A stretch of DNA of 64,000 nt from Dehalococcoidia bacterium (GCA_965237475.1 OZ250140.1:2597877-2661876); one strand, 5' to 3'; shown: positions 9,497 to 18,072, counted from the stretch's first letter. Made by a program: numbers and translations. The notes: a model not told the origin generated them from the sequence alone.

Positions 9497-10693
9497 ATGC
9501 AGGTCTCTCTCTTCTTCCTTCCGTCGGTCGGCACGCGCGCGGACATCGAGCAGGGGATGGCGGGGCTGCGTCCTGAGCTGTACCAGGAGATGCTGGCGGA
9601 CCTCAGCGAGTTCGCCAAGGCGGGCGACGCGCTGGGCTACGACTCGATCGGGTTCACCGAGCACCACTTCCACATCGAGGGCTTCGAGGTCTCGCCCAAC
9701 CCGATCATGCTCGACCTCTACCTGGCGATGCAGACCGAACGGATCCGCGTGGGGCAGCTCGGCCTCGTGCTGCCGGCGCAGAATCCGATTCGTGTCGCGG
9801 AGGACATCGCGATGCTCGATCACATGACCGGCGGGCGCGCGCTGGCCGGCTTCGCGCGCGGCTACCAGCGCCGCTGGGTCGACACGCTGGCGCAGCAGAT
9901 TCACGGCGTCCACGCGGCGCGCCCCGGCGACCACGACGCGATCGACGCTGCCAACCGCGCCGCGTTCGAGGAGCACTTCCAGATCATCAAACGATGCTGG
10001 ACCGAGGACATGATGTCGTACCAGGGAGACGCCTGGCAGATCCCGCCGGAGGGCACGCCGTGGGATATCGAGGCGACGCGTCTGTACGGGGCCGGCGTCG
10101 ATGAGAACAACATCGTGCGCCAGATCGGCGTCGTGCCGAAGCCGCTACAGAAGCCGCACCCGCCGCTGTTCCAACCGTTCGCCTCGTCGGAACGGACGAT
10201 CCGCTGGTGCGCGCGGGAGGGGATCACGGCGATTCTGCCGCCGATGTACCCGGAGCTGCAGAATCGGCTCTATGACGTGTATCAGGAGGAGGCCGCAGCG
10301 GCCGGGCGGACGCTTGCGCCGGGCGAGGGGTTGGGCGTGCTGCGCGATGTGATCATCACTGATACGGACGAGGAGGCGATCGAGCTGTGGCGTCACTCCG
10401 CCGCGTTCGCCGGCGCCGCCTGGTTCGCTCCGTTCGGGTTTGCGGAGGCCCTGCGTCCGCCGGGCGGAGAGCTGCTCACGCTGGAAGAGCAGCTGGAGAA
10501 GGGGTTGCTGTTCGCGGGGACGCTGGACTCGGTCAAGCGTCAGGTGCAGAACATGCTGGATGTGACGCCGGTCTCGTGGATCTTCATGTGGCAATACAAC
10601 GGGCTGCTGCCGAGGTCGCAGATTCTCAGGAGTATGGAGGACTTCGCGGAGAAGGTGCTGCCGGAGTTTGGGGGGTTGGGGGGCGGGGGCTAA
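9497..10693 (+). CDS. LLM-class flavin-dependent oxidoreductase (luciferase-like monooxygenase)
   Basis: 398 aa; SIGFTEHHFHIEGFEVSPNP...LGLVLP... Confidence 0.7.
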   Translation: MQVSLFFLPSVGTRADIEQGMAGLRPELYQEMLADLSEFAKAGDALGYDSIGFTEHHFHIEGFEVSPNPIMLDLYLAMQTERIRVGQLGLVLPAQNPIRVAEDIAMLDHMTGGRALAGFARGYQRRWVDTLAQQIHGVHAARPGDHDAIDAANRAAFEEHFQIIKRCWTEDMMSYQGDAWQIPPEGTPWDIEATRLYGAGVDENNIVRQIGVVPKPLQKPHPPLFQPFASSERTIRWCAREGITAILPPMYPELQNRLYDVYQEEAAAAGRTLAPGEGLGVLRDVIITDTDEEAIELWRHSAAFAGAAWFAPFGFAEALRPPGGELLTLEEQLEKGLLFAGTLDSVKRQVQNMLDVTPVSWIFMWQYNGLLPRSQILRSMEDFAEKVLPEFGGLGGGG

Positions 10694-16600: not shown

Positions 16601-18072
16601 TGCGCCGCGGTGACGACTGTGATCTGCTGGCCGCGCTCGACCTGGTAGCGGCCCTCCGCGTCGGGCTGGATGATGACATCTGCGGGGATGTCCTGGACCT
16701 GGGCGTAATCGTCGGGGGCGCCTTTGTAGACGGCGCGGATGCAGTCGGCGTCGGTCGCCGCCGCGCAGCGGTCGGCCGGCAGGGACGTGAACGTCGCCGT
16801 CACCGTCTTGTTGGCGTACAGCTCCAGCACGCAGGTCGTGGCCGCGCCTGAACAGTCGCCGCCCCAGCCGCCGAAGGTGTGCGTCGCATCGTTCCAGCTC
16901 GCCGTCAGGGTGACCTCCGCGGCCTCGTCGTGCGTGGTTGTTCCTGCGGGACTGACGCTGCCGCCCTCGGCCGCCGTCACGGTCAGGGTGTAGGTCGGCA
17001 GCGGCGTCTCCGGAGTGGCGGGCGCGTCCGCGGCGCAGTCGGGCAGGCTCAAGTGCGCCAGATCGTTGGTCCGCACATCGCGCAAGTCGGGCGGCACGCA
17101 GCCGCTGATCCCGCTGTTGCCCTTCAGGTACAGCCGGCTCAGTTCATCCAGATTCGTGAGCTGCGTCGGCAGCGAACCCGTCAAGCGGTTGTGCTCCAGG
17201 CGCAGATTATCGAGGTTCGTCAGGTTGCCCAACTGGGTCGGAATCGAACCCGAGAGCTGGTTGCGCGCCAGGTACAGCCAGCTCAGGTTCACGAGCCGGC
17301 CCAGGCGCGTCGGGATCGAGCCGGTCAGCCGATTGCCGTCCAGGTAGAGGTCCGCGAGGCCGGTGAGGTTGCCCAGCTGCGGCGGGATCGAACCGGTCAG
17401 CCCGACCCCCTCCGGCAGCGGCCGCGGTCCGCTCAGGATCAGGTCGGTCAGCTGCGGGCCGATCGCGCCCAGCTCGGGCGGGATCGGTCCGGTCAGCCGG
17501 TTGCCGGCGAGGTTGAGATCGGTCAGCCGGGTGAGCTGGCCCAGTTCAGCCGGGATCGAACCGGTGAGTTGGTTGCGCCAGGCCAACTGCAACTCGCGCA
17601 GCCCGGTCAGCCGGCCCAGCTCGGGCGGGATCGTGCCGTCGATGCCCGCCCGATCCAGGTTCAGGACCGTCACTCGCTGGACGCCGTCCACCGTGCCGAC
17701 CGTGATCCCGGTCCACTGATTGAGCCGGCGCTCGGCGCTCCAGTTGAGCGTGGCCGTGCCGCGCAATGTGTCCTTGGCCGCCAGCAGCAGGGCGCAGTCG
17801 GCGACCAGGCCGGGGTTGTCGGCTGGGCTCGGTACCACCGTGCCGTTCGCGCAGGGCTCCGTCGCCGACGCGGGCTGGGGGCCAAGGCCCGAGGTCAGGA
17901 GGATCGTCGCCACTAGCGCAGCGATCATCAGGAGGAGCGCCGTGGAGGCCGCGTAGCGCTTCCAGCTGGGGGTCGCTGCGTGTCCGCCTGCGCCCTCGGC
18001 GCGCCGCGCCCTCGTCAGCCGGGCGCGCAGCGCCGCCAAGCCGGCCAGAATCGCGCGCGTGACTTTAGGCAT
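10690..18072 (-). CDS. Giant (~2460 aa) secreted/surface multidomain protein. Domain order: N-terminal TM/signal anchor; plant-type LRRs (~17060-17700); InlB-B-repeat-like Ig domain (~16780-17010); DRC domain (~16350-16760); FN3-like modules; M23/LytM metallopeptidase domain (~14380-15060; HAALDIGG ... HLHFEI); Thr-rich linker; 13x PPPCGGEGQPAC
   Basis: Single uninterrupted 7.4-kb ORF; motifs read directly from the translation; start trimmed to MPKVTRAIL (ATG at 18072, preceded by GGTGGAG). Confidence 0.8.
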   Translation of the reverse strand: MPKVTRAILAGLAALRARLTRARRAEGAGGHAATPSWKRYAASTALLLMIAALVATILLTSGLGPQPASATEPCANGTVVPSPADNPGLVADCALLLAAKDTLRGTATLNWSAERRLNQWTGITVGTVDGVQRVTVLNLDRAGIDGTIPPELGRLTGLRELQLAWRNQLTGSIPAELGQLTRLTDLNLAGNRLTGPIPPELGAIGPQLTDLILSGPRPLPEGVGLTGSIPPQLGNLTGLADLYLDGNRLTGSIPTRLGRLVNLSWLYLARNQLSGSIPTQLGNLTNLDNLRLEHNRLTGSLPTQLTNLDELSRLYLKGNSGISGCVPPDLRDVRTNDLAHLSLPDCAADAPATPETPLPTYTLTVTAAEGGSVSPAGTTTHDEAAEVTLTASWNDATHTFGGWGGDCSGAATTCVLELYANKTVTATFTSLPADRCAAATDADCIRAVYKGAPDDYAQVQDIPADVIIQPDAEGRYQVERGQQITVVTAAQLPAGYTRFYLQQRPLEQPWPVSFSQLIPPVGTTYTFTVTSDERGASPISFDLTAARPRPLPRPGQKPELGEVVVTTEFVLPLMLELMSSRELCTANTLTELSWSISGGRPPYALTIEGETVDADAESHRVNCGPIPTDPFTDDPLPEPKRQFSAAVTDSQAAPASASGNVQVDLALPLPAPSSVRTTPYPSYTQISVRSDPGSGLQFPNRPDDLIGFRAHAIRYRRTGSADWRYATSVKDGMDGVDAWENPGLGAHEIEAASVRHPLEIETPAALSWSRTHTYTVAGPIQNASISAISDAVTVTWDAQPNTGYGYVTIASANGWRMVQFDEPSQAGTHTQVFAHAEPDTDYTVEVYKARGEYRGASPVLQVRTKPAPEGWTQPPAGPQNLRASVSRHPPLTCLSIEWDAPHPNADPIYDLMIIEVETGLRILSTQIWDGTTSYQTCGEDTYRNIEPSKTYHILVTHTGIREASARISVSTAPSQTQSRSADSSSSAQVDPRPLRHPFRPLWPVRVTNHYAYTDDPFDWRTYSSGPRYHAALDIGGESWSVAQNKLVDASVRAIAGGTIRILNDGDPDDWGIVYYCPDPALPIVEQFGANLEGKQCNYVLGASSGRTALIFHAPDRSKVFYVSKYAHLKKGSIPAALVARLGTVGDDMIDPAGTASVRAGDRIGGIGNSGQASSTLYRTGDGVFCRGGPDSPELDCSAEQWERAKGNEPCAVNSHCEHAFIDPHLHFEIRRFKGSAEADWYNKAEHCAERSGDIVASQMGSYCGWSRERQLHSTILDPEQYLSPLPASHVPRDAGLAPECPAFGEPTTKITCANPGRRVFEVTRLLPSTELVATSPKIELSIAVWRPAFYSRFSAPPFRFILPGIRSTLPGVHGYYTHVDCSESTIVYAPIVHYPEALPESPEGEIPRVSRTLELTLGSSCPFGIYTRNDRSLGPSPDPIREGVYILPARADIELSDPAATVRWSAALEAGADQFSAVQTLVHDDHDLFTFRAVPGKTYRFCTTTGDASTTCVDEGSEDRIAELLIVGPAEGGQSGVVVDGAGLTRGANGLEWGVPASPATVETYAVVVRRRARFEGGEVPQYTYRLKYTVPAVPTCDPDDPDDLLVLYCIPPAPVISGTVDRSHDGFIVNFSGSHRATRYQAQITGDVDLRIEDVEDGANARSHPFSGLQADTEYTVRVRGLNQTGASPWSAPMSETTLVLPYCIGPGEDVGGERRRAAQTAQCRVLAPPTSPSVSEVTDATAKLSWSAEGSDLEFELHKVKGDDCNAGLPSDPGDLDRTSSKFHVFPELTQNTFYRFCVRATRSVGEAPNAIPVRSQWASATARTLATPPPTTPTVTIGADATNASSEGDTALFTVTRTGSTGSSLAVDLSVTETGSMVSGTAPTSVTILSGASTAQVSVHTVNDSTDEPSSTITMTVVSRSRYEIGSPSSASVTVADDDPPPVVVDPPNTKICWDGSVIPVVQDCPPPPCGGEGQPACPPPPCGGEGQPACPPPPCGGEGQPACPPPPCGGEGQPACPPPPCGGEGQPACPPPPCGGEGQPACPPPPCGGEGQPACPPPPCGGEGQPACPPPPCGGEGQPACPPPPCGGEGQPACPPPPCGGEGQPACPPPPCGGEGQPACPPETKMCPDGSVIPVADPCPVPPTKCETEPKPADYSTMPHPPIPTVEYQWITIIDIITFDCTLHQQQRTTTTTTTYHVTFSCDGMCWVSSVTSSSTSVSSGWASTGVTSSCNTRRSATGSTMTLTAGSYEMQWGDQRIVFTVPVGATVELSRRQQESGDYVAVLSMKKGAELVVGADALSGDDQARATRFADTTDPTLSAIAASLRDPTTEAPEPSVTTTTECAVAEASDDGQTSVDLDANSCAIVRQGGPITVALGGESLAVALAAGREWLILDGTGSDEAGTTAAIFVDLLTGGYITLALTDGSELARHIPEGNTDLPALFDAMTPAAPADDGS
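11700..12165. repeat. 36-bp tandem repeat, ~13 copies, inside the giant CDS (encodes PPPCGGEGQPAC)
   Basis: CATGCCGGCTGGCCCTCGCCGCCGCACGGCGGAGGCGG repeated head-to-tail with only G/A and C/T wobble differences. Confidence 0.9.

Follow-up and report, generated by a model that had tools for sequence, protein, structure and literature searches.

Endopeptidases of the M23/LytM type act outside the cell and often carry a separate targeting domain, which is an SH3b domain in lysostaphin. Their targets include peptidoglycan cross-links of other bacteria (lysostaphin, zoocin, beta-lytic protease) and Gly-rich matrix proteins of hosts (LasA, and pseudoalterin on elastin). The catalytic motifs in LytM are roughly 80 residues apart. 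Leucine-rich repeat (LRR) proteins form another group of surface proteins, and are among the recognised 'eukaryotic-like proteins' (ELPs) of sponge symbionts (PMC6306507). Here we analyzed a gene that joins LRRs to an M23 domain. It is located in a stretch of 64,000 nucleotides from a Dehalococcoidia bacterium (GCA_965237475.1 OZ250140.1:2597877-2661876), referred to below as the window, with positions counted from its first letter. The gene is genuine and encodes a giant extracellular protein of Dehalococcoidia (Chloroflexota). The LRR-M23 protein belongs to a small, uncharacterised family that about a dozen related genomes have in common. It is thus uncommon without being unique, and is no artefact.

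The complete open reading frame (ORF) runs on the minus strand from an ATG start at 18072 to a stop codon at 10690-10692, and encodes 2460 residues. The initial annotation had described a single ORF at 10690-18072, and the frame is indeed open throughout its 7.4 kb, in a window of about 68% GC. An in-frame GTG at 18138 is an alternative start that would add 22 residues. The ATG at 18072 is preferred because a Shine-Dalgarno-like GAGAGGTGGAG (18073-18090, minus strand) precedes it by 5 nt, and a paralogue at 28895 has retained this site together with the ATG. Between 17900 and 18400, neither a sigma-70-like promoter nor an intrinsic terminator was found. At the 3' end, the stop codon overlaps a convergent gene for a luciferase-like monooxygenase (9497-10693, plus strand) by 4 bp, so that no terminator could be accommodated between them. 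The protein is identical to a database entry (P0001, in NCBI and ENA), encoded on a contig of 3,018,280 bp. The features described next belong to this gene and are all on the minus strand.

Family and structure evidence indicates an M23/LytM metallopeptidase domain near the middle of the protein (residues 1000-1285; 14218-15075), interrupted by three long insertions that contain Cys. Its HAALD and HLH motifs are found at residues 1029 and 1224, respectively. We aligned the M23 regions of 12 family members (alignment A1). Five residues are invariant in all 12: H1029 and D1033 in the HxxxD motif, H1127 in KYAHL, and H1224 and H1226 in HLHFE. Identity to the giant protein in this region is 30-49% in A1 and 25-43% by BLAST. 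H1127, the second YxHL-strand His, aligns to YAHL of zoocin A and DipM, and we take it to have the catalytic role of its equivalents in LytM and lysostaphin. HLHFEIR, containing H1224 and H1226, aligns to HLHFE of zoocin A, StM23 and TagE. The zinc ligands proposed in the initial annotation (HxxxD and HxH) thus withstand a proper alignment, together with the YxHL His. As judged from these sequences, conservation of the five active-site residues despite such low identity is a signature of selection for catalysis, and the domain is apparently an active zinc endopeptidase.

Membership in M23 rests on transitive homology and on the fold, because the protein's own Pfam score is below threshold. PF01551 is matched by 12 of the 12 family members (E<=1), with a best E of 7.3e-11, and the homologues P0019 and P0035 carry precomputed PF01551 matches. 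Searched against the PDB, the A1 profile retrieves the M23/LytM chains DipM, TagE, zoocin A, StM23, SpoIIQ and ShyA; phmmer with the giant protein sequence found no match among PDB sequences. In an AlphaFold2 (AF2) model based on A1, the core has a predicted local distance difference test (pLDDT) score of 80-96 and adopts the M23 beta-sheet core fold. The three insertions are disordered, with pLDDT <50. A clear M23 core had been claimed, and is borne out by the family and structure evidence although the single-sequence Pfam match is sub-threshold. The two catalytic motifs are separated by 195 residues because the three insertions intervene. C1076 and C1096 in the insertions are invariant in A1. 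The three disulfide-containing insertions probably reshape the substrate groove.

The conserved active site bears on whether the protein may be a pure adhesin or eukaryotic-like protein. Catalytically inactive LytM domains are found in EnvC, NlpD, DipM and SpoIIQ, and likewise in vertebrate LECT2. The M23 domain could similarly serve for binding or scaffolding, in a protein that mediates host attachment or modulates phagocytosis. LRR ELPs of sponge symbionts have been postulated to function in host interaction (PMC6306507), and the remainder of the giant protein is composed of binding modules. In addition, P0153, P0169 and P0174 in the wider subfamily are without HxxxD and HxH in a crude regex screen. 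However, degenerate LytM domains have lost their zinc ligands, whereas the five residues described above are invariant in the 12 family members. A purely adhesive protein is therefore unlikely in our judgment.

The N-terminal half contains the candidate targeting modules. Residues 1-64 (17881-18072) are composed of an Arg-rich tail and a hydrophobic segment directly after it. The latter, at residues 41-64, is the only strongly hydrophobic stretch of the entire protein, confirming this part of the N-terminal membrane or signal anchor annotated previously. Reading of the sequence suggests that residues 1-64 serve as a signal anchor, or else as a long signal peptide (PASA|TEP). Homologues begin with ordinary signal peptides or similar anchors. 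The protein has an acidic composition and paired Cys in nearly every module. Together with the single N-terminal hydrophobic segment and the signal peptides of homologues, these properties fit an extracellular location.

A Cys-flanked LRR domain follows (residues 72-350; 17023-17859), with about eight repeats of 24 residues that conform to LxxLxLxxNxLtGsIPxxLGxL. It was identified with Pfam and regex. In the Pfam scan of the whole protein, LRR_8 (47.4 bits, cut-off 27), LRR_1 (45 bits, cut-off 20.6) and LRR_4 (39.7 bits, cut-off 27) match above their cut-offs, spanning residues ~134-350. The repeats belong to the 24-residue LxxLxLxxNxLxGxIPxxLGxL class. Six regular units spaced 24-25 residues and two irregular ones were found by regex. 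Of the roughly 10 plant-type LRRs proposed earlier, the LRR identity stands but the count is reduced to about eight. Pfam found no plant-type N-terminal cap (LRRNT_2) in residues 60-152 even at E<=10, and the likeness of this segment to the cap (ALLLAAKDTL...NW...W.GITV) is by eye only.

Three modules and a spacer connect the LRRs to the M23 domain. The first is a divergent InlB B-repeat (Flg_new_2; residues 361-430; 16783-16992), which scores 31.2 bits against a Pfam cut-off of 23.6, in agreement with the InlB-B-repeat-like domain of the initial annotation. The second is the 'ADRC' domain (PADRC...DCIRAVYKGAPDDY...; residues 431-570; 16363-16782), with 53-86% identity across the family. The third is a conserved Cys-pair module (CTANTLTELSW...GGRPPY; residues 571-690; 16003-16362), which is Ig-like by eye only. 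Neither the ADRC domain nor the Cys-pair module has a Pfam match, and a segment-wise Pfam scan of residues 430-700 found none. A He_PIG domain at residues 571-690, suspected by eye, received no support from Pfam and was dropped. The spacer (residues 691-985; 15118-16002) is beta-rich and poorly conserved (25-35%). A Pfam scan of the excised segment indicated a sub-threshold fn3 in it, at residues ~780-860 (21.1 bits).

The region after the M23 domain (LPPLPAS.VPRD...; residues 1286-1600; 13273-14217) is conserved in the family and is without annotation. A segment-wise Pfam scan of residues 1280-1620 found no match, and a PPC domain suspected by eye at residues 1480-1590 was dropped as Pfam gave no support. 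Two fn3 domains come next (residues 1612-1826; 12595-13239), with a Pfam E of 2.8e-17 in two stretches from residue ~1610. These two are above cut-off and the one in the spacer is below it, consistent with the several FN3-like modules noted before. A T/P linker at residue 1830 precedes a weak Calx-beta-like domain (residues 1836-1945; 12238-12567), matched at residues ~1848-1942 in the excised-segment Pfam scan. Its PF03160 score of 15.7 bits (cut-off 27, E 0.016) is below threshold and indicates a resemblance only. The Calx-like domain is absent from the full-length homologues, and was not listed in the initial annotation.

A repeat array is found between the Calx-like domain and the C terminus (11695-12168). 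It spans 474 bp and contains 12 tandem 39-bp units encoding PPPPCGGEGQPAC (13 residues), or 12.2 copies according to Tandem Repeats Finder (TRF). The 12 copies are identical at the amino acid level, and their DNA differs only at three synonymous sites, in an irregular pattern. The array had been described as 13 units of 12 residues (36 bp), which our analysis corrects. A poly-Thr linker had also been placed before the repeats; the T7 run (residue 2193) comes after them. The array is bracketed by CWDGSVIPVVQDC and MCPDGSVIPVADPC, and the Cys spacing in it alternates between x4 and x7. Changes in the copy number of the 39-bp unit keep the reading frame. Local BLAST found no match to the Pro/Cys array among 132 retrieved proteins, and a 29-nt core of the repeat has no exact match in JGI metagenome contigs. 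The protein ends in a conserved, beta-rich module of two domains with no known fold (residues 2225-2460; 10693-11400), terminating in ...LFDAMTPAAPADDGS. A segment-wise Pfam scan of residues 2125-2460 found no match.

The giant protein has about 10 full-length, collinear homologues from other genomes. Collinearity was established by segment-by-segment BLAST. The order LRR-InlB-ADRC-Ig-spacer-M23-post-fn3-[variable]-C-module is found in P0002, P0004, P0005, P0008, P0009, P0018, P0035 and others. The Calx-like segment and the Pro/Cys repeat were found in the giant protein only. When 1.84 billion representative proteins were searched exhaustively with the M23 profile as a hidden Markov model (HMM), 33 matched at E<=1e-30 and 48 at E<=1e-10. 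Ordinary M23 proteins appear from about E 1e-9. Many remoter members of the subfamily are without LRRs, yet possess a signal peptide and a C terminus of the '..LLDAIAASA' type. Within this rare M23 subfamily, the proteins with LRRs thus form one branch. That a fusion of LRRs and a peptidoglycan-type endopeptidase had not been seen before, as stated in the initial annotation, was an overstatement, since a conserved family exists in metagenome-assembled genomes (MAGs) of Dehalococcoidia.

Related loci were also sought among GTDB species representatives, with the ADRC/Ig segment as query. All 24 loci found are in MAGs that bear the label Dehalococcoidia, Tepidiformaceae or Chloroflexi. A single genome often has several of these loci, and the ADRC domain is restricted to Dehalococcoidia MAGs among these representatives. 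One homologue locus (L003) belongs to SB0664_bin_6, a MAG from sample SB0664, in which sponge-specific Entoporibacteria were found as well. Some members of the family, at least, therefore live in sponges, a conclusion based on the sample of this homologue locus and not on the genome of the window. The closest match to the query is L001 8510-16372 (OZ253504.1, a Dehalococcoidia MAG), with 71% identity over the 202 residues of the query segment. Its ORF is split into ORFs of 1220 and 1398 residues by a single in-frame stop, indicative of read-through, of an error in sequencing or of a gene that is dispensable.

The window itself contains partial copies of the gene. A mini-paralogue of 692 residues (26832-28910, minus strand) contains the anchor, LRR, InlB and ADRC regions and a short C-terminal module, and is without M23. 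It is 86% identical to the giant protein over 571 residues. The 5' ends of the two genes (16360-18140 and 27180-28960) are 95-100% identical over ~900 nt, including the ribosome-binding site and an identical run of 213 nt, after which identity falls stepwise to ~60%. This suggests, from sequence comparison, gene conversion or recent recombination at the 5' ends of paralogues 10 kb apart. A C-terminal relic of a paralogue (..DGSELARHIPEGHPELSALFDAMIPAAPADDGS*; 24916-25020, minus strand) has an in-frame stop upstream. At 24916-25014 it matches the giant protein with 85% identity over 33 residues, and the shared C-terminal tail reported for a gene remnant is thereby verified.

An alternative is that paralogues were mis-joined during assembly, across the near-identical 5' region or the 39-bp array, and that the gene is an artefact or a chimeric pseudogene. 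The identity of its first ~900 nt to a gene 10 kb away, the 474 bp of near-perfect repeats, the relic C terminus nearby and the Calx-like and repeat segment without counterpart in homologues would all be in line with this. Several observations speak to the contrary. The frame is open for its full length in GC-rich DNA, and an identical protein is on record on the 3.02-Mb contig. The repeat units differ by synonymous and irregular variants only, a pattern unlike that of an assembly which has collapsed or expanded. Chimerism is unlikely because the same collinear architecture, from the LRRs through M23 to the C-terminal module, recurs in ~10 independent proteins of other genomes. We consider an artefact very improbable.

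Comparison with a second full-length protein in the same genome, P0002, revealed a sharp mosaic. The two proteins are 96% identical in the LRRs, 93% in InlB, 86% in ADRC and 60% in the Ig module. Identity drops to 30% in the spacer and 29% in M23, and is 73% in the C-terminal module. Metabolic genes adjoin the giant gene, and the neighbourhood differs from one paralogue locus to another. P0002 sits in an unrelated context, and therefore no conserved operon exists.

This mosaic is relevant to the proposal that the protein is a housekeeping enzyme, an envelope-spanning autolysin or morphogenetic enzyme that is anchored in the cytoplasmic membrane. Its LRR/Ig spacer of ~1000 residues would place M23 in the cell's own peptidoglycan/S-layer zone, to trim cross-links there in the manner of the cell-shape enzyme Csd3 and of ShyA. 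The protein has an N-terminal anchor, as such an enzyme would, and some MAGs bearing the family are Tepidiformaceae. In Tepidiformales, peptidoglycan is found below an S-layer, in a periplasm of ~40 nm (PMC10284905). An 858-residue Acyl_transf_3 + LysM protein is encoded in the window (46769-49345, plus strand), a possible peptidoglycan-modifying acyltransferase. Its sequence hints that the lineage has or handles peptidoglycan, and suggests a peptidoglycan-containing envelope. However, 2400 residues with LRR, InlB, fn3 and Calx modules are not normal for housekeeping autolysins. The family is multi-copy and mosaic, and its catalytic middle diverges fast while the LRRs do not, as is typical of genes that function in interaction or antagonism, and not of enzymes of the core wall machinery. 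The gene appears to be dispensable because one homologue is interrupted by a stop and a relic copy is present in the window. No cell-wall or division genes are found in its context, which is not conserved. The housekeeping role is thus rather doubtful, although we give it somewhat more weight than the pure adhesin.

The mini-paralogue is part of an island of paralogous anchored or secreted proteins at 20463-37919 (minus strand). Six further ADRC copies are found in the window between 27 and 38 kb, one in the 692-residue gene and five in smaller anchored proteins. Four ORFs contain one or two ADRC domains (31444-33900, 33913-35115, 35129-36430 and 36615-37919, minus strand). The three at 33913-37919 end in a related tail, '..LF[DE]Q[IL][IM]ASIR', and the one at 31444-33900 ends in '..VFDYIAASA'. 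Two shorter LRR ORFs are located at 20463-21839 and 22365-23696 (minus strand). Between the LRR ORF and the relic, a tandem duplication of 51 bp is found at 23881-23980 (2.0 copies, 95% match), and each copy holds a perfect hairpin (CCGCAGCACACATTAAGTGTGCTGCGG-like).

The island also encodes a 498-residue protein (25339-26835, minus strand) with a hydrophobic N-terminal signal, an HELGHVLGLSH motif and fn3. Its gene is directly downstream of the mini-paralogue, with an overlap of 4 bp. The motif is of the metzincin type, HExxHxxGxxH, and Pfam matches to M54 and M10 are sub-threshold only. By its sequence, this protein is probably a second, different secreted metalloprotease of the same island.

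From the reading frame, the domain identities, the M23 fold with its conserved active site, the family with its taxonomic restriction and the paralogue mosaic, we infer a topology, an enzymatic activity, a substrate and an ecological role. We favor, with moderate confidence, a surface-tethered, LRR-targeted extracellular endopeptidase that acts on foreign peptidoglycan or host matrix. The N-terminal signal anchor would hold the protein at the cell surface. The targeting end would be formed by the 24-residue LRRs, the InlB B-repeat and the lineage-specific ADRC domain, and a stalk of Ig/fn3-like modules would carry the catalytically competent M23 zinc endopeptidase. The fn3 domains, the Calx-like domain and the rigid Pro/Cys repeat of in-frame variable length may provide further stalk and reach, up to the family-specific module at the C-terminal end. 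The binding modules are predicted to dock on a non-self surface, either another bacterium or, in a sponge-type holobiont, the extracellular matrix of the host. On the docked surface, Gly-rich or cross-bridge peptide bonds would then be cleaved by the M23 domain.

A number of observations weigh against a targeted endopeptidase of this kind. Pfam detects no M23 in the whole protein, the excised segment scores 16.9 bits for PF01551 (cut-off 28.7), and Foldseek returned no match. The insertions, at pLDDT <50, could occlude the active site in the modeled structure, which would make the enzyme latent. The N-terminal anchor places the LRRs nearest the membrane, which is awkward for distal targeting. 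The acyltransferase-LysM gene in the window and the peptidoglycan of Tepidiformales indicate that the target could be the cell's own wall. Genes for immunity or for a secretion system were not found, nor was a conserved operon partner. Host matrix and the cell's own wall are equally conceivable as substrates. Cell-wall lysis, antagonism, predation or attachment, put too firmly in the initial annotation, would each be extrapolated from the sequence.

A bolder version is that the family provides host-associated Dehalococcoidia with a weapon, or a system for foraging, that recombines and is specific to their lineage. It would in effect be a new kind of contact-dependent bacteriolytic surface organelle that is independent of secretion systems. 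Its conserved chassis would be the anchor-LRR-InlB-ADRC cassette and the C-terminal module, kept near-identical by gene conversion. On a length-adjustable disulfide/polyproline stalk, the chassis would display a fast-evolving M23 lysin remodelled by insertions. Upon contact, neighbouring or food bacteria might be lysed, or host matrix cut. We hold this version to be improbable as a whole. Two related ideas were discarded. Sponge SAR202 lack peptidoglycan genes (PMC6306507), but the notion that the host of the gene is without peptidoglycan, hence self-immune, is unsupported, as Tepidiformales have peptidoglycan and the window encodes a LysM protein. A polymorphic toxin was rejected, as the variable part is central instead of C-terminal and no immunity gene is found.

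If the M23 domain is active and faces outward, host-associated uncultivated Dehalococcoidia would gain a tool to kill or digest bacteria or to remodel matrix. This would tie the 'eukaryotic-like' LRR proteins of symbionts to enzymatic activity, not passive binding. The insertion-bearing M23 variant could have unusual substrate specificity, which would matter because M23 enzymes are under exploration as antibacterials. The paralogue mosaic, with ends at 86-96% and a catalytic middle at ~30%, is a tidy case of modular surface-protein evolution. The locus is a hypothesis generator for symbiont-host or interbacterial interactions, and is not conceptually unprecedented.

Compared to known systems, the giant protein shares the HxxxD/YxHL/HxH constellation with the M23/LytM endopeptidases, including LytM, lysostaphin, zoocin A, H. 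pylori Csd3, Vibrio ShyA and the secreted beta-lytic protease/LasA group. As proposed here, the LRR would take the place of their separate targeting domain. Unlike in these enzymes, the M23 domain sits midway in a 2460-residue protein, its own score is below the Pfam cut-off, and its motifs are 195 rather than roughly 80 residues apart as in LytM. The subfamily is also rare, with the 33 representatives (E<=1e-30) noted above.

The LRR region invites comparison with two groups of virulence proteins. In the Listeria internalins (InlB), N-terminal LRRs are likewise followed by an Ig-like region and a B-repeat, and are surface-exposed. However, internalin LRRs are 22 residues long, compared to 24 here. 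GW and N-cap modules are internalin features, and no GW-module or internalin cap domain is among the Pfam matches of the giant protein, which is ~4 times the size of InlB and has an enzyme domain. Membership in the internalins was rejected on account of the 24-residue repeats and the absence of an LPXTG motif from the giant protein. In NCBIfam, the LRR region is matched best by XopAE, XopAC and XopL, type III effectors of Xanthomonas with LRRs, which have the repeat type in common with it. Unlike these effectors, the giant protein has an N-terminal anchor or signal peptide, and no type III secretion system (T3SS) context was seen. A T3SS effector was rejected, as the scores (26-62 bits) are far below the cut-offs (450-600).

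Closer in design are other metagenomic giants. Giant LRR proteins fused to a reprolysin-like M12B, a subtilase S8 + PPC or a trypsin-like peptidase are common among the best database matches of the LRRs. Examples are P0014, P0020 and P0006 (2671-3414 residues), in which 24-residue LRRs of the same type form very long arrays. Like the giant protein, they exceed 2000 residues and combine these LRRs with a secreted peptidase. The relationship is via the LRRs only, covering 8-14% of the query; they have far more LRRs, a peptidase of another clan and another domain order, and are without the ADRC, InlB and C-terminal modules. The LRR-peptidase theme itself is therefore not unique, and these giants appear to be a recurrent, barely described metagenomic architecture. 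By analogy, they support a design of a targeting module plus a protease payload.

The sponge-symbiont ELPs (LRR, ankyrin, TPR, fn3) share with the giant protein the combination of LRR and fn3 repeats in a secreted protein. Both are expanded to multiple copies per genome, and the family is found in Chloroflexota MAGs, one of them from a sponge metagenome. ELPs are described as repeat-binding proteins (PMC6306507), to which the giant protein adds a peptidase that, from its sequence, is apparently active. It is a rare combination of known kinds, an M23 peptidase within an LRR/fn3 eukaryotic-like giant, in a narrow lineage of Chloroflexota.

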